Origin: a candidate division WOR-3 bacterium
GTDB taxonomy: Bacteria; Hydrothermota; Tepidihabitantia; Tepidihabitantales; CAIPLT01
Length of the DNA stretch: 24,436 nucleotides
Reading direction: 5' to 3'
Assembly: GCA_965649215.1 (NCBI GenBank)
Contig: CBFGJZ010000019.1
Location: forward strand, 1 to 24,436
Translations under genes and position numbers: made by a program
The notes under the pieces: model-generated
Told to the model about the DNA's origin: nothing
What the model saw: only the letters and a program-made list of their open reading frames with translations
Databases searched by the model: none
Part shown: positions 10,212 through 22,089 of the stretch, piece by piece
How positions within the stretch are numbered: the stretch's first letter is position 1
How the letters are laid out: each line of letters starts with the position of its first letter

Positions 10212-10985
10212 ATGGTAAAAGTGGCAGTGCTTTTTACTGCGGGAACTAATTGTGACGAAGAAACAATTTTAGCATTTACTAAAGCAGGAGCAAAAACAGA
10301 AAGATTATATCTCAACAGTTTGAAAAAAAATCACCTCATTCTTAAAAAATATCAAATTCTTGTAATTCCTGGTGGGTTTACCTATGGTGATTATATCAGT
10401 GCTGGTAAAATTCTTGCTAATGAATTACAATATCTATTATCGGATACACTTATGACATTCATCGGTGAAGGTAAATTGTTAATCGGAATTTGTAATGGAT
10501 TTCAAGTCCTTGTTAAAGCCGGTATTTTACCACAAGTTGAAAGTCAACAAGTTGTTACACTCACAACCAATGATTCTAATCGCTTCGAATGTCGCTGGGT
10601 GTATCTCAAAACAAACGAAGCGAGCCCCTGTGTTTTTAGTAAAGGTCTTTCTATCTTCCCAATACCGGTTGCGCATGCGGAAGGAAAGTTTATCGTGCGA
10701 AATAAAACAATTTTATATAAACTAAAAAACCATCACCAGATTGTCTTTACCTATACAAATCCACAAAATGGTATGGCAAAATATCCTGATAATCCCAATG
10801 GTTCAATTGAAAACATTGCCGGTATTTGTGATCCAACTGGTCGTATTTTAGGTCTCATGCCCCATCCTGAACGAGCATCATTTTTTTATCAATATCCCAC
10901 TCATTATCGATTGAAATACAATGAACCTTTAGCATTTAAAATATTTTCAAACGCGGTGGAGTATGCCCAGAAAAACCTGTCCTAA
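10212..10985 (+). CDS. purQ: Phosphoribosylformylglycinamidine synthase glutaminase subunit
   Basis: GTNCD.E, PGGFTYGD, GICNGFQ (catalytic Cys), AHAEG, NPNGS, MPHPER. Confidence 0.95.
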   Translation: MVKVAVLFTAGTNCDEETILAFTKAGAKTERLYLNSLKKNHLILKKYQILVIPGGFTYGDYISAGKILANELQYLLSDTLMTFIGEGKLLIGICNGFQVLVKAGILPQVESQQVVTLTTNDSNRFECRWVYLKTNEASPCVFSKGLSIFPIPVAHAEGKFIVRNKTILYKLKNHHQIVFTYTNPQNGMAKYPDNPNGSIENIAGICDPTGRILGLMPHPERASFFYQYPTHYRLKYNEPLAFKIFSNAVEYAQKNLS

Positions 10986-11298
10986 TCAATCTTTGCGCAT
11001 TCAAAATCATCCGATTTTAAATTTCAATAAAGGTAAATTAGTAAAATTTTATTTTGAAGGTAAAGAATTATCAGGCTATGAAGGTGAAGCAATTGCCGCA
11101 GCATTAATTGCAAATGGCATAAAAATATTCCGCATCACTGAAAAAATGAGACGCCCTCGGGGATTTTTCTGTGCGGTTGGAAAATGTTCTTCATGTCTTA
11201 TGACCGTCAACTCAGTTCCGAATGTAATGGTCTGTATCGAACCTTTAAAAGAAGGAATGACAATCTCAAGACAAAAAGGCAGGGGTAAACTACTCTAA
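10963..11298 (+). CDS. (2Fe-2S)-binding protein, sarcosine oxidase alpha N-terminal / HcnA-like
   Basis: GEAIAAAL.ANG, RPRGFFCAVGKCSSC.M.V...PNV..C..P..EGM. Confidence 0.88.
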   Translation: MPRKTCPNQSLRIQNHPILNFNKGKLVKFYFEGKELSGYEGEAIAAALIANGIKIFRITEKMRRPRGFFCAVGKCSSCLMTVNSVPNVMVCIEPLKEGMTISRQKGRGKLL

Positions 11299-11361
11299 TG
11301 CAACACAATAATAGAATATGGCTATGGTGGTAATTTCTCATGAGCTTCTTATATTAATAAT

Positions 11362-12462
11362 ATGAATACCAATAAATTCAATCTGGAATCGGAAATACTA
11401 ATCATCGGTGGTGGTCCAGCTGGACTATCTGCAGCAATTGTTGCTGCAGAATTAGGTGCTAAAGTTATTATTGTTGATGATAATTTAACTCCAGGTGGAC
11501 AACTTATCAAGCAGACCCATAAATTTTTTGGATCGCAGAGTCATTATTGTGGTATCCGTGGCATCAATATTGCTCAAATTTTAAGTCAAAAAATAAATCA
11601 CCCAAACATAACTTTCTTAAATAACACTTCGGTAATTGGCTATTACGAACATAATATAATTGCCGCGGTGCAAAATGATACCCTGTTAAAAATTCACGCC
11701 CCTAGTTTAATAGTAGCAACGGGCGCAACTGAAAATTTGATTGCTTTTCCCAATAATGATCTTCCTGGTGTTTATGGTGCGGGCGCCGTGCAAACTCTAA
11801 TGAATGTACACGGGGTCAAACCAGGTCAAAAAGCACTTATGGTCGGTTCTGGAAATATTGGATTAATTGTTTCTTATCAAATGATGCAAGCTGGCATTCA
11901 AGTTGTCGCGCTAATTGAAATTATGAATCGCATTGGTGGTTATCATGTTCATGCTGCAAAATTAAGGCGTTTAGGAGTGCCAATTTTAACTTCACATACT
12001 ATTAAATATGCGATTGGCAAAGATTCTGTTTGTGGGGCCATAATTGTCAAGGTCAATAATAAATATCAACCTATTAAAGGAAGTGAAAGAAAACTATCGG
12101 TTGATATGATCTGTTTGGCTGTTGGTCTCACACCTTTATCTGAACTTTTATATCAAGCTGGCTGTAAAATAGTTTATATTCCTGAACTCGGTGGAAATGT
12201 TGCATGGCATAATGAAAATATGGAAACCTCAATCCCAGGAATTTTTGTTGCTGGTGATGTTTCGGGTATTGAAGAAGCGTCAACCGCAATGCTCGAAGGT
12301 CGGATTGCCGGTGCGAGCGCTTATCAATACCTAAAAGGTATTAACAACCAAGCTCAAAAAATTATCGAACAAGCTAAACAAGAACTTACCGAAATTCGTC
12401 AAGGACCTTTTGGAAACAAACCCAGAATAGGTAAAGAAAAACTACAATCTCTTAAAATATAA
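11362..12462 (+). CDS. FAD/NAD(P)-dependent oxidoreductase, sarcosine oxidase / proline dehydrogenase alpha-like (HcnB-like)
   Basis: IIGGGPAGL, GGQLIKQTHKFFGS, VATGA.E, GSGNIGL, FVAGD.SGIEEASTAMLEG. Confidence 0.88.
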   Translation: MNTNKFNLESEILIIGGGPAGLSAAIVAAELGAKVIIVDDNLTPGGQLIKQTHKFFGSQSHYCGIRGINIAQILSQKINHPNITFLNNTSVIGYYEHNIIAAVQNDTLLKIHAPSLIVATGATENLIAFPNNDLPGVYGAGAVQTLMNVHGVKPGQKALMVGSGNIGLIVSYQMMQAGIQVVALIEIMNRIGGYHVHAAKLRRLGVPILTSHTIKYAIGKDSVCGAIIVKVNNKYQPIKGSERKLSVDMICLAVGLTPLSELLYQAGCKIVYIPELGGNVAWHNENMETSIPGIFVAGDVSGIEEASTAMLEGRIAGASAYQYLKGINNQAQKIIEQAKQELTEIRQGPFGNKPRIGKEKLQSLKI

Positions 12463-12504: not shown

Positions 12505-12533
12505 TTGACTTTACAATAATTTTAAAGTATGCT
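12505..12533 (+). promoter_or_regulatory. Putative sigma70 promoter for the EF-G paralog
   Basis: TTGACT (12505-12510), 17 nt, TATGCT (12528-12533). Confidence 0.55.
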
Positions 12534-12548
12534 TATATTTAAATATTA

Positions 12549-12630
12549 TCGGTAGACGAAACACGCGAATAGAAATAAAATTATTAAAGAGTGGTAATAT
12601 CCTATTCGCGAATTCGTTGATTATCGGAGG
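12549..12630 (+). promoter_or_regulatory. Structured 5' leader (long interrupted hairpin) abutting the SD of the EF-G paralog
   Basis: Nested complementary arms CGGTAG/TTATCG, ACGAA/TTCGT, CGCGAATAG/CTATTCGCG and ATTATTA/TGGTAAT (some G-U pairs); SD GGAGG at 12626-12630. Confidence 0.6.
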
Positions 12631-12635
12631 CGAAT

Positions 12636-14726
12636 GTGAAAGAATATAGTAGTGATAAGATAATTAATCTCGGTTTTTTTGGTCACGGTGGTTGTGGTAA
12701 AACCACCATTGGTGAGGCAATCTTATATTTATTAAAACAGAATACCCGACTGGGTAGAGTTGATGATGGAACTTCGTTGCTAAATTATGATGAAGACGAA
12801 ATTGTCCGTAAAATTAGTATTAATTTAGCATTGGGATATGGTGAATACAAAGACTATTATTTTAATATTGTGGACACACCCGGTTATGCAGATTTTGTTG
12901 GTGAGGTGCTTTCTGGTCTTCGAGCAATTGATTGTGGAGTTGTGGTGATTGATGCGTCCTCAGGAATTGAAGTAGGCACGGAAATGGTTTGGCGATATCT
13001 TAATAAAGAAGAATTGCCCCGTTTAATTTTTGTCAATAAACTTAGAAAAGAACATGCCGAATTTAATAAAGTTTTAAGTGAAATAACTAAAGAATGGGGA
13101 AGCGGGGTCTGTCCTTTGTTTCTTCCCATCGGTCAAGAAGCGAATTTTCATGGTTTAGTTGACATCTTAGCTAATAAAGCTTATTCATATGAAAACAGCC
13201 AACGTAAAGAAATTTCGATTCCTCCAGAATTACAAGAACAGATAAAGACTTATAAAGAAAAAATTATCGAAGCCGCTTCTGAAGTGTCTGACGAGATAAT
13301 GACTAAATTCTTAGAAGGCGGTGACATTAGTCTCGAGGAACTAAAAGCAGCAGTAAAAGAAGGAATTAGACAACATAAAATTTTCCCTGTTTTATGTGGC
13401 GATGCTTACGATAATATTGGAATTATTGAATTACTTGATTTGTGTTGTGCAATGACCAGTGGTTTTGCGTTAAGTCGTGAATTCAAAGTACTTGACATGA
13501 AGAAAAATCAAACGGTTACCCTTAAGCCCGATCCCAATGGGATACCAATTGTTTTTGTTTTTAAGACTGTTTCAGAACCCCATATTGGGGATATGAATTA
13601 TGTGCGAGTTTTATCTGGCACGTTGCAAGCCGGCAGCACTCTTTTTAATACTACTGTCGAGCGAGAAGAAAAAATTAATCAAATCTATTACATTAAAGGT
13701 AAAGAACGCATTGAAACCAATAAACTACGCACCGGTGAGATTGGCGCATTAGTTAAATTGAAGCAAACAAAAACCTCTGATACTTTAACCAGTGCTCAAG
13801 AACCTTATAAAGTTCCTCCCATCGAATTCCCAGCACCATCAATTTCTGTAGCAATCGTCCCGAAATCAAAAGGTGATGAAGAAAAGGTATCAAATGGTCT
13901 GGCTCGTTTGCACGAAGAAGACCCTACCTTTACTTATCAATATGACACTGAATTAAAACAACAAGTTATCTCTGGACTAGGGGAATTACATTTAGATATC
14001 ATTATTGGTCGTCTCAAGAGAAAATTTGATGTCTCAGTAGATTTAGAAAAACCAAGAATTCCCTATCGCGAAACCATTGTTAAAAAGGCTGAAGCACAAG
14101 GTAAATACAAAAAACAAAGTGGTGGACGTGGACAATATGGAGATGTATGGTTGCGATTAGAACCCAAAGAACGAGGTAGTGGTTATGAATTCGTTGATGA
14201 AATCTACGGCGGCGCCGTGCCTGCGAAGTACATACCTTCAGTCGAAAAAGGTGTTTTAGAAACAATGGCTAATGGTGTTTTAGCGGGTTATCCCGTAATT
14301 GATGTTAAAACCACAATTTACGATGGTTCATATCACGAAGTTGATTCTTCAGATATTGCCTTTAAGATTGCCGCTCAATTAGCGTTCAAAGCAGCTTGTG
14401 AAAAAGCCGGGATGGTGATTTTAGAACCGATTTGTGATGTTGAAGTAACAGTACCCGAACAATATGTTGGTGACATTATGGGCGATCTAAACGCCCGAAG
14501 GGGACGCATCATGGGTATCGAAGCTGAAGGCCGTCTGCAAGTTATTAAAGCAAAAGTACCTCAAGCGGAAATGTATAAATATTCTAACACCCTCCGTTCT
14601 ATCACCCAGGGACGCGGTTTCTTCACAATGAAATTTTCCCATTATGAAGAAGCACCTCGCGATGTTATGAACAAAGTGATTGAAGAAGCCAAAAAATATA
14701 AAGAGGCAAGTCAAGAGAAACAATAA
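12636..14726 (+). CDS. fusA: Elongation factor G paralog (EF-G2-like)
   Basis: Full five-domain EF-G length; GHGGCGKTT, RKISI, DTPGY, EEDPTF, GLGELHL, QSGGRGQYG, SYHEVDSS; GTG start with SD GGAGG; not in the str operon. Confidence 0.93.
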   Translation: MKEYSSDKIINLGFFGHGGCGKTTIGEAILYLLKQNTRLGRVDDGTSLLNYDEDEIVRKISINLALGYGEYKDYYFNIVDTPGYADFVGEVLSGLRAIDCGVVVIDASSGIEVGTEMVWRYLNKEELPRLIFVNKLRKEHAEFNKVLSEITKEWGSGVCPLFLPIGQEANFHGLVDILANKAYSYENSQRKEISIPPELQEQIKTYKEKIIEAASEVSDEIMTKFLEGGDISLEELKAAVKEGIRQHKIFPVLCGDAYDNIGIIELLDLCCAMTSGFALSREFKVLDMKKNQTVTLKPDPNGIPIVFVFKTVSEPHIGDMNYVRVLSGTLQAGSTLFNTTVEREEKINQIYYIKGKERIETNKLRTGEIGALVKLKQTKTSDTLTSAQEPYKVPPIEFPAPSISVAIVPKSKGDEEKVSNGLARLHEEDPTFTYQYDTELKQQVISGLGELHLDIIIGRLKRKFDVSVDLEKPRIPYRETIVKKAEAQGKYKKQSGGRGQYGDVWLRLEPKERGSGYEFVDEIYGGAVPAKYIPSVEKGVLETMANGVLAGYPVIDVKTTIYDGSYHEVDSSDIAFKIAAQLAFKAACEKAGMVILEPICDVEVTVPEQYVGDIMGDLNARRGRIMGIEAEGRLQVIKAKVPQAEMYKYSNTLRSITQGRGFFTMKFSHYEEAPRDVMNKVIEEAKKYKEASQEKQ

Positions 14727-14777: not shown

Positions 14778-15863
14778 ATGTTTTCTGATGAATACTTTAT
14801 GCAACAAGCAATTGCTTTAGCCGAGCGGGGTCGTGGTTATGTTTCGCCTAATCCCTTGGTTGGAGCAATTATTGTTAAAAACAACAAAATTATCGCGACC
14901 GGTTATCATAAAAAATTTGGCGATGCCCATGCTGAAATTAATGCCCTAAGAAATGCCAAAACATCACTTCGTGGTGCCACACTTTATGTCACATTAGAAC
15001 CGTGTAATTTTTTAGAAAAGAAAACACCACCTTGCGCCCCTGCAATTATTGAAAGCGGTATTAAAAGAGTTGTGATTGGCACGCAAGATTGTAATCCTAA
15101 AACCTGTGGAAAAGGTATTGGGGCATTACGTCAAGCGGGTATTAAAATCAAAGTTGGGGTATTAAAACAAGTAATTGAAAAACAGAATGAATCTTATTTT
15201 AAGTTTATGCGAACCGGTCTACCGTGGGTTAATCTAAAATTGGCTTTAAGTTTAGATGGTCGTCTTGCAAATCAAAAAGGACAATCAAAATGGATTACCA
15301 ACAAACTCAGTCGTCAAGATGCTCAAACCTTACGTAAAGAAAATGATGCTATTTTAGTCGGTATCAACACTATCTTACATGACAATCCTCGCTTAACTTG
15401 TCGGATTGAGAGAAAAAAGAAATTGCTGCGCGTTATCTTAGACCCCAACTTTCAAATACCAACTGGAGCACAAGTCCTAAAAGGTAAAAATCCAACCCTT
15501 GTTTTAATTAGTAATCAGATAAATATCAATGCCAAAAAGTTAAACTATTTAAGAAAGAATGTTGAAATCATCTCACGACCAACTTATCATGGTCTTTTCT
15601 CTTGGCCTGATATCTTGACTATGTTAGCTAAGCGAAATATTGCCAGCCTGCTTATTGAAGGAGGTGCTCAAGTTGCAAGTTCTGCTTTACAAGCAAAAAT
15701 TGTTGATAAAATATATTTCTACTATGCTCCCAAAATTTTAGGGGCAGGCCTCACTTTTTCAGATCACCTAACATTAAACAATCTTAAATCAGCACTTATC
15801 CTCAAATCATACCAAATCAAACCGCTCGGTCACGATTTTCTACTCCAAGGATATCTCCATTAA
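14778..15863 (+). CDS. ribD: Bifunctional riboflavin deaminase/reductase
   Basis: PNPLVGA, HAE, TLEPC...TPPC, SLDG, KWIT, ILVGINT...DNPRLT, IEGG. Confidence 0.96.
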   Translation: MFSDEYFMQQAIALAERGRGYVSPNPLVGAIIVKNNKIIATGYHKKFGDAHAEINALRNAKTSLRGATLYVTLEPCNFLEKKTPPCAPAIIESGIKRVVIGTQDCNPKTCGKGIGALRQAGIKIKVGVLKQVIEKQNESYFKFMRTGLPWVNLKLALSLDGRLANQKGQSKWITNKLSRQDAQTLRKENDAILVGINTILHDNPRLTCRIERKKKLLRVILDPNFQIPTGAQVLKGKNPTLVLISNQININAKKLNYLRKNVEIISRPTYHGLFSWPDILTMLAKRNIASLLIEGGAQVASSALQAKIVDKIYFYYAPKILGAGLTFSDHLTLNNLKSALILKSYQIKPLGHDFLLQGYLH

Positions 15864-15903
15864 AAACAGTTGACAAATCGCTAATTGTTGTTTTTAATTA
15901 TTT

Positions 15904-16518
15904 ATGTTTACGGGGATTATTGAGACTCTCGGTAAAGTTAGGGCAATCCAAAATAAAGGTCGCAATCGGATTTTTGTTATTGAAAGCAACATCGCCTCAG
16001 CATTAAAAATATCTGATAGTATTGCCATTAATGGTTGCTGCCTGACGGTCATAAAAAGAGAAAAAGAAACCATTGCGGTTGAAGCAATTAGTGAAACTTA
16101 TCGCAATACTAATCTCATATCTTTACAAAAGGGCGATTATGTAAATTTAGAGCGTGCCCTAAAAATTTCGGATCGACTTGATGGCCATCTTGTCCAAGGA
16201 CATATTGACGAAGTCGCTCCGATTATATCCATCAGAAAAACTTCGGACTGGGTGGCAATGGAAATTCGCATTTCTGAGACAAATCGTAACTTTATTGTCG
16301 CTAAAGGTTCAATTGCAGTTGATGGCATTAGTTTAACGATTGCCAAATGTAATACCTTAAAATTCACTACAAATATTATTCCTTTTACTTATGAACATAC
16401 CAACTTAAAATATAAAAAAGTCGGTGATATGGTTAATCTTGAATTTGATATTATTGCCAAATATCTTAAACAATATATCCACCAGCATTCTCACACCTTA
16501 CGGAGGAGTTTATTTTAA
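15904..16518 (+). CDS. ribE: Riboflavin synthase (alpha chain)
   Basis: MFTGII N-terminus, SIAINGCCLTV, VNLERA, GHLVQGHID, GSIAVDGISLT. Confidence 0.96.
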   Translation: MFTGIIETLGKVRAIQNKGRNRIFVIESNIASALKISDSIAINGCCLTVIKREKETIAVEAISETYRNTNLISLQKGDYVNLERALKISDRLDGHLVQGHIDEVAPIISIRKTSDWVAMEIRISETNRNFIVAKGSIAVDGISLTIAKCNTLKFTTNIIPFTYEHTNLKYKKVGDMVNLEFDIIAKYLKQYIHQHSHTLRRSLF

Positions 16519-22015: not shown

Positions 22016-22089
22016 TGGGTCCGGTAGGACTCGAACCTACGGCCAGCTGATTATGAGTCAGCTGCTCTAACCAACTGAGCTACGGACCC
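22016..22089 (-). tRNA. tRNA with CAU anticodon, most likely tRNA-Ile2 (lysidine-modified); CCA not encoded
   Basis: Reverse complement GGGTCCGTAGCTCAGTTGGTTAGAGCAGCTGACTCATAATCAGCTGGCCGTAGGTTCGAGTCCTACCGGACCCA folds as a cloverleaf. Paired G1-C72 and no GGG/CCC anticodon stem argue against fMet; overall pattern resembles Ile2 more than elongator Met. Confidence 0.93.

Follow-up and report, generated by a model that had tools for sequence, protein, structure and literature searches.

The window analysed here, positions 1 to 24,436 of contig CBFGJZ010000019.1 of a candidate division WOR-3 bacterium, carries near its middle a gene for a second, atypical elongation factor G (EF-G), hereafter the window paralog. 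Its open reading frame (ORF) is intact, spans 2,091 nt and encodes 696 residues from a GTG start (Table 1). Pfam recognises all five EF-G domains (GTP_EFTU, EF-G_D2, EFG_III, EFG_IV and EFG_C), and among NCBIfam models NF009381 (PRK12740.1-5, elongation factor G subfamily) scores best, matching residues 1-689 with 905.5 bits against a curated cut-off of 583 bits. The protein also passes the cut-off of TIGR00484 (723.4 vs 659.4 bits) and misses those of NF058620 (EFG2_Bacteroid; 612.5 vs 1000 bits), NF009377 (EF-G2; 596 vs 890 bits) and NF012153 (tetracycline ribosomal protection; 313.4 vs 775 bits). An AlphaFold2 model built from an 81-sequence alignment has a mean predicted local distance difference test (pLDDT) score of 91.9 and a predicted template modelling score (pTM) of 0.85. 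Foldseek superposes this model best on ribosome-bound EF-G (7n2v, template modelling (TM) score 0.94); Thermus thermophilus EF-G-2 (1wdt) is matched with E = 1.5e-80 and 36% identity, and ribosome-bound Bacteroides EF-G2 (8dmf) with TMq 0.86 and 35% identity.

The assembly, 1.64 Mb in size and 95% complete, contains exactly two EF-G genes. The other one lies on a different contig (C3:2765-4825(-)) and is canonical (EFG I), scoring 945.9 bits against TIGR00484 and reading AHIDAGKT, RGITIT, DTPGH, NKLD and CGSS at the nucleotide-binding motifs. The window paralog has the same fold and the same domain IV loops as canonical EF-G, but differs at those motifs from the genome's own copy, to which it is 36% identical. 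Among 121 sampled WOR-3 genomes, all 121 have at least one EF-G-family match, and 114 have two or more.

The Asp in the NKxD motif (G4) is, by textbook account, what makes P-loop GTPases specific for guanine. Aligned to T. thermophilus EF-G, without gaps at any of the motifs, the window paralog has GHGGCGKT for AHIDAGKT, RKISIN for RGITIT, DTPGY for DTPGH, NKLR for NKMD and GDAYDNIG for GSALKNKG. Thus, neither the His of DxPGH nor the Asp of NKxD, both of which mark canonical translational GTPases, is present. In the 81-sequence alignment, Gly496, Gly497 and Gly499 of the domain IV tip loop and His567, Val569, Asp570 and Ser571 of the second domain IV loop are invariant. An earlier note on this stretch, made from its letters alone, had placed all of these motifs; every placement was reproduced at the exact position, and the P-loop GKT and the domain IV loops are intact as it had said.

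Most of these features are those of a known group. The EFG II subfamily, described by Margus, Remm & Tenson 2011 (PMC3150367) and structurally typified by T. thermophilus EF-G-2 (PDB 1WDT/2DY1), is characterised there by Gly16, Ser61 with a relaxed RGITI motif, a fast-evolving G domain, a conserved domain IV and an obligatory canonical partner. The window paralog shares the five-domain architecture, the Gly16 P-loop, the Ser for Thr in G2, the rapidly evolving G domain next to a conserved domain IV, and the canonical EF-G partner. RKISI and DTPGY, a type of change that the earlier note had said to occur in EF-G2 paralogs, are ordinary EFG II hallmarks by the same account, and both the family assignment and the missing catalytic His are ordinary here. 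The gene had also been put forward as the best candidate for an undescribed system; its overall type, however, is that of the described subfamily (PMC3150367). Position 25, Leu in 99% of EFG II according to that description, is Ile in the window paralog, a conservative deviation. By contrast, G4 and G5, which are conserved in EFG II according to that paper, are both changed in the window paralog (NKLR and GDA). Taken together, the gene is best explained as a functional EFG II-type second EF-G, encoded beside a canonical EF-G in an uncultured hot-spring bacterium.

Table 1. Features of the window (positions and strand refer to the 24,436-nt stretch).
Feature	Position	Strand	Remarks
Small 2Fe-2S (Fer2_4) protein and pyridine-nucleotide-disulphide (flavin) oxidoreductase	10963..12462	+	upstream neighbours
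Overlapping sigma-70-like promoter matches TTGACT-17-TATGCT and TTTACA-18-TATATT	12505..12539	+	consensus matches only, weak evidence
Leader hairpin, weak	12550..12626	+	-22.2 kcal/mol, z = -1.95
Shine-Dalgarno GGAGG, 5 nt before GTG	12626..12630	+	kept in 4/4 aligned upstream regions
EF-G paralog gene (EFG II type)	12636..14726	+	ORF; Pfam; NCBIfam; AlphaFold2; Foldseek
G1 / P-loop GHGGCGKT, residues 16-23	12681..12704	+	Gly16 is the EFG II signature; canonical EF-G has Ala
G2 / switch I RKISI, residues 58-62	12807..12821	+	Ser61 replaces the Mg-binding Thr
G3 / switch II DTPGY, residues 80-84	12873..12887	+	Tyr84 replaces the catalytic His
G4 NKLR, residues 134-137	13035..13046	+	Asn134 and Lys135 kept; Arg137 replaces the guanine-reading Asp
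G5 CGDAY, residues 254-258	13395..13409	+	Asp256 (codon 13401-13403) replaces Ser
Residues just after G5, 258-259	13407..13412	+	unlike ancestral-state EFG II in swapped sequences
Domain IV tip loop SGGRGQ, residues 495-500	14118..14135	+	intact; motif position, alignment
Domain IV loop YHEVDSS, residues 566-572	14331..14351	+	intact; motif position, alignment
ribD and ribE (lumazine-binding domain protein)	14778..16518	+	downstream neighbours
tRNA gene	22016..22089	-	Rfam, gathering score

The changes at G4 and G5 are not sequencing errors, a possibility that the earlier note had left standing. In all 120 of the closest homologues listed, whose sources are named 'candidate division WOR-3 bacterium', the fourth position of G4 is not Asp and the G5 Ser position is Asp. 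Contigs from two other hot-spring studies cover the gene, one (run X2) along its whole length with 113 nucleotide differences and one (run X3) over 12751-14602 with 123 differences; none of the differences listed for either contig, up to position 13334, falls in the G4 codons. At the protein level, P0001 differs from the window paralog at 8 of 696 residues and has identical motifs. P0001 is probably the product of the X2 contig, since both records are 8125 nt long. In that case, the 113 nucleotide differences would be overwhelmingly synonymous, and 8 residue differences set against 113 nucleotide differences would indicate strong purifying selection on the window paralog.

To describe how the two changes are distributed, we call a sequence swapped when the G4 acid is lost and an acid is gained at the G5 Ser position, and ancestral when it has NKxD and GSA. 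Forty WOR-3 loci were chosen to spread over the families of the phylum, of which 36 paralogs were kept (three canonical copies and one further locus, L022, were left out). The swapped state is found in 32 of these 36, including one (L035) with an alignment gap at the G4 position. The remaining four comprise two paralogs with an acid at both positions (L029 and L044), one with G4 Asp and G5 Asn (L014), and one with an acid at neither (L036). L014 and L029 look like reversions, because they are nested inside the swapped clade in the IQ-TREE phylogeny described below. The swap is ancient and conserved across the WOR-3 phylum, and the proposal that the G4 and G5 changes are real and co-occur in a clade is borne out by the alignment.

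The composition of the two positions shows what has changed. Over 195 swapped sequences, the six commonest residues at the fourth position of G4 are Lys (60), Thr (34), Arg (25), Gly (23), Ser (17) and Ala (14), while the G5 position is Asp in 188 and Glu in 7. Since G4 varies while the G5 acid is fixed, the pattern reads as the relocation of an acid and not as an Asp-to-Arg charge swap. The earlier note had proposed a compensatory pair; the coupling part of that proposal stands, because the pairing recurs independently (see below), and an altered base-recognition site is a fair inference, but Arg is not the partner. In PMC3150367, G4 (NKxD) and G5 (gSAx) are stated to be conserved in EFG II, so the relocation contradicts that published generalisation. 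Neither a G5-acid EF-G nor an ATP-using EF-G was found in the literature searched, and what is unusual here is the recurrent relocation of the pocket acid from G4 to G5, which that literature does not describe.

The swap is not confined to WOR-3. Among 150 representatives at 50% identity, isolated swapped sequences occur among sisters with NKxD and GSA, and outside the main clade, 6 of 10 sequences whose G4 is non-acidic have Asp at G5. A set of 120 mostly Armatimonadota proteins, obtained from the swapped sequence P0263, divides into 64 ancestral and 38 swapped sequences, 14 with both acids, 3 with G4 Glu and G5 Ser, and 1 with neither acid; swapped and ancestral Armatimonadota proteins have the phylum's own P-loop, GHRGxGKT, in common. 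The 14 both-acid proteins (P0327, P0328, P0334, P0342 and the P0370-P0404 group) are possible intermediates or reversions. A further 20 loci at 65-100% identity to P0166, another of the isolated swapped sequences, most of them labelled Candidatus Aminicenantes, are swapped in all 18 readable cases (L057 and L064 were left out). A third state is also viable clade-wide: the Bryobacterales (Acidobacteriota) loci L070-L073 have an acid at neither position (G4 NKMA, G5 CGAG).

To count the changes, a FastTree phylogeny of 426 tips was built without the two trait columns and the states were mapped by Sankoff parsimony. The tips comprise 195 swapped sequences, 20 with both acids and 6 with neither. 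Parsimony places 6 joint changes, of which three found clades (151, 41 and 8 tips) and three are singletons, next to 6 gains of the both-acid state and 5 single-tip losses to the neither-acid state. When 11 losses and 12 gains were placed at random in proportion to branch length, none of 100,000 placements reached 6 shared branches. In a 66-row IQ-TREE phylogeny (LG+C20 PMSF), the paralogs of WOR-3, Armatimonadota and Aminicenantes form separate, well-supported groups (support 96% for WOR-3 and 100% for the other two), and both states are present inside the Armatimonadota clade. Canonical EF-G is split from all paralogs with 100% Shimodaira-Hasegawa-like approximate likelihood ratio test (SH-aLRT) support in this tree, which includes no named reference EFG II sequence. 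When the 28 swapped rows are constrained to form a single clade, the log-likelihood falls by 666 units (approximately unbiased (AU) test, p = 4e-33). A single origin is thus rejected; the swap arose independently in at least three bacterial phyla.

These counts bear on the simplest explanation, that two neutral substitutions were co-inherited in one clade and have no functional coupling. Most swapped sequences of the first search do fall in one WOR-3 clade, and an independent-pairs sign test, detailed below, is not significant. Nevertheless, we regard this explanation as very improbable given that the pairing recurs in Armatimonadota, in Aminicenantes and in at least three single lineages, that a single origin is rejected by the AU test, that no random placement matches the observed co-occurrence and that G5 Asp is found in the majority of the sequences outside the main clade that lack a G4 acid. 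Co-occurrence in a large clade together with independent recurrence of the pairing argues that the G4 and G5 changes are coupled and not accidental.

We compared the nucleotide site of the 195 swapped sequences with that of 197 ancestral-state EFG II sequences. In the swapped group, Lys22 is kept in 192 of 192 non-gap rows, Thr23 in 191 of 192, Asp80 in 194 of 195 and Gly83 in all 195. Lys135, the base-stacking residue of G4, is present in 187 of 195 swapped vs 151 of 197 ancestral-state sequences, and Tyr or Phe occupies the catalytic position in 192 of 195 and 159 of 197, respectively. Position 25 is mostly Leu (103), followed by Ile (65), Val (16) and Phe (8). Just after G5, the swapped sequences differ from their ancestral-state relatives: at the third residue past the G5 Ser, Lys or Arg has been lost, and at the second, Leu or Tyr mostly takes the place of Thr. 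The remodelling of the pocket therefore extends beyond two positions.

One possibility is decay, in which base recognition would have been lost and the protein would be a pseudo-GTPase that has only a weak affinity for any nucleoside triphosphate (NTP), or none, and binds the ribosome without needing a nucleotide. The base site may then be filled by a salt bridge from Arg or Lys at position 137 to Asp256; a Lys or Arg that could pair with Asp256 is present at G4 in 85 of the 195 swapped sequences. The absence of the catalytic His, the unconstrained G4 position and the existence of lineages with neither acid fit this picture as well. On the other hand, Thr, Gly, Ser or Ala at position 137 (88 of 195) are unable to form the bridge. 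Decay would also be expected to erode the site, but the Lys and Thr of the P-loop, Asp80, Gly83, the Ser/Thr of switch I, Asn134 and Lys135 are no less conserved than in EFG II proteins whose G4 is intact. The G5 acid is likewise fixed, in 195 of 195 sequences by definition of the group, but also in the 120 closest homologues listed, which were not selected for the trait. We therefore consider a degenerate pocket unlikely. Conservation of the phosphate and Mg ligands and of Lys135 equals or exceeds that in ancestral-state EFG II, and the site therefore probably still holds a nucleotide.

The reading that we favour, and to which we would give about an even chance, is that the base-reading carboxylate has moved from G4 to G5 and that the factor still binds a guanine nucleotide while hydrolysing it poorly. 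The carboxylate facing the Watson-Crick edge of the purine would have passed from the NKxD Asp to the adjacent G5 loop, where the Ser of SAx has become Asp or Glu, leaving the old G4 position free to vary. In Ras, the hydroxyl of the G5 Ser hydrogen-bonds the carboxylate of the G4 Asp (Ser145-Asp119). Because of this contact, an Asp at G5 could place its carboxylate roughly where that of the G4 Asp used to be, and could take over the former job of that residue, accepting hydrogen bonds from the Watson-Crick edge of the purine; this is why retained guanine reading is favoured. The window paralog has kept the residues that handle the triphosphate and Mg (Lys and Thr of the P-loop, Ser61 and Asp80-x-x-Gly83) as well as the domain IV loops extending to the decoding centre. 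An acid in the pocket seems necessary, since one is found at G4 or G5 in all but 6 of the 426 tips.

The same residues can be read in another way, which we hold to be possible but rather doubtful: loss of the G4 Asp combined with a new G5 acid might give ATP or relaxed purine specificity, with the acid accepting a hydrogen bond from adenine N6. The window paralog would then be an EF-G variant that is loaded by ATP and is independent of the GTP pool. No translational factor of the EF-G family is known to use ATP, and no ATP-using EF-G turned up in the literature searched. The precedent comes from SpoIVA (Updegrove et al. 2021, PMC7952092), a TRAFAC-GTPase-derived ATPase with experimentally shown ATP specificity; it is a cytoskeletal protein that descends from Era and is unrelated to EF-G. 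As in the window paralog, SpoIVA has a polar or basic residue under little constraint in place of the G4 Asp (NKxD to NSxR, with K, H, N or R), the G5 loop has an acid and the phosphate motifs are kept; moreover, NSxR and SAE put into Era made that GTPase prefer ATP (PMC7952092). Swapped EFG II sequences show the same pattern of variable G4 and fixed G5 acid, have intact phosphate ligands and have lost the Lys three residues after the G5 Ser, so that more than two positions of the pocket are remodelled. The correspondence is incomplete, however. In SpoIVA, the stacking Lys is gone and the acid is found two positions past the Ser, whereas in swapped EFG II the acid replaces the Ser and Lys135 is retained in nearly all sequences. 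An acid at the place of the former G4 carboxylate would be expected to repel adenine N1, as the G4 Asp does, and in the sequences with both acids (20 tips), the two specificities would conflict. In its broader form, in which convergent rebuilding of the pocket in WOR-3, Armatimonadota and Aminicenantes, by loss of the G4 Asp and the G5 Lys and gain of a G5 acid, has produced a translocase loaded by ATP or any purine NTP, the proposal is likewise tentative.

Several points weigh against a relocated, guanine-reading carboxylate in an EFG II protein. The one experimentally studied case with a similar pattern, SpoIVA, is an ATPase (PMC7952092). Neither-acid EFG II proteins exist (6 single tips of 426, and the four Bryobacterales loci with NKMA and CGAG), so a pocket acid is not strictly required. 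The independent-pairs sign test is underpowered, as well-supported branches yield only 4 pairs, with p between 0.25 and 1; G5 changes in the same direction in 1 to 3 of the 4 pairs (mean 2.4) and never in the opposite one. In bit score, the window paralog is closer to T. thermophilus EF-G (641 bits) than to T. thermophilus EF-G-2 (481 bits), and its assignment to EFG II thus rests on signatures and tree and not on closest similarity.

How such a factor might act is suggested by two EF-G2 proteins from other bacteria. Bacteroides EF-G2 is reported to translocate without GTP hydrolysis (Han et al. 2023 EMBO J, as cited in PMC12775393), and the fold of the B. thetaiotaomicron protein (PDB 8DMF/7UVP) matches that of the window paralog, although the latter falls outside the NF058620 family model. 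A GTP-independent translocase, which the earlier note had raised as a possibility, therefore has a published, hydrolysis-independent precedent in Bacteroides, at least as reported in PMC12775393. According to a 2026 preprint (bioRxiv 10.64898/2026.05.25.727771), Mycobacterium smegmatis EF-G2 has the same His-to-Tyr change at the catalytic position (Tyr98), and an H88Y substitution in M. smegmatis EF-G1 nearly abolishes ribosome-dependent GTPase activity; EF-G2 is proposed there to hold post-translocation ribosomes and to slow translation under stress. The mycobacterial protein differs from the window paralog in keeping the G4 Asp as TKLD, according to the same preprint, and the window paralog fails the NF009377 model. 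With Tyr84 in place of the catalytic His, and by analogy with the Bacteroides and mycobacterial proteins, the window paralog is probably a nucleotide-bound, hydrolysis-poor translocase or a factor that holds post-translocation ribosomes.

A single translation-factor family has thus given up the NKxD Asp at least three times, almost always with a new acid in the G5 loop. If the G5 acid does read guanine, this would be a natural case of a specificity determinant migrating between loops, and the rule that a protein without the NKxD Asp is not a GTPase could mislead annotation. If, instead, the preference has shifted to ATP, the EF-G family would have its first ATP-loaded member. Such a translocase would no longer be tied to the guanine-nucleotide pool and would bear on the debate about nucleotide binding versus hydrolysis in translocation. 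On either reading, the swap defines a clean, testable set of point mutants.

Turning to the genome context, a canonical fusA does exist in this genome, as the earlier note had proposed to confirm, but it does not adjoin rpsG in this lineage and so is not in a str operon. The rpsG gene is at C28:19588-20049(+), 160 nt from the end of its contig. The genomes compared here were G117, G101, G024, G006 and G020: three relatives belong to the same order, and in these the distance between canonical fusA and rpsG ranges from about 50 kb to several hundred kb, whereas in the two genomes from another WOR-3 family canonical fusA comes immediately after rpsG. The break of the str operon therefore happened within the WOR-3 phylum. 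Insensitivity to (p)ppGpp, which had been suggested for the rewired pocket, is an unlikely driver: the (p)ppGpp synthetase domain PF04607 was found in none of 21 genomes from the order, 17 of which have a completeness of 90% or more, against 11 of 14 controls, and the long RelA/SpoT model TIGR00691 has none in the assembly itself. This WOR-3 order may therefore lack the stringent-response alarmone system.

Upstream of the gene, the start codon and the GGAGG are conserved in three same-family relatives, and the region holds 13 promoter-like matches vs 7.9 +/- 3.2 in shuffles. The structured leader to which the earlier note had drawn attention folds only marginally better than shuffled sequences, 8 of 200 of which fold as well; it could not be aligned in the three same-family relatives, and the leader region has no Rfam family at the gathering score. 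We therefore rejected the leader as a conserved element; it is probably not a regulatory RNA.

In several WOR-3 families (f14, f17, f19, f20 and f29), the match of the paralog to the query begins only at about residue 204; its G domain is present, with recognisable P-loop, G2 and G3, and is far more diverged than domains II-V. Next to the window paralog gene, the upstream iron-sulphur protein and oxidoreductase are not kept in relatives, while ribD and ribE downstream are followed in relatives by a radical-SAM-like ORF (loci L045-L047). Conservation of the arrangement efg2-ribD-ribE-radical-SAM stops at the family: the neighbours are different in two genomes that belong to the same order but to another family, and the operon was accordingly rejected as a functional hint. 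No flavin mononucleotide (FMN) riboswitch is called by Rfam in the window, and the tRNA gene towards its end is the only Rfam match there at the gathering score.

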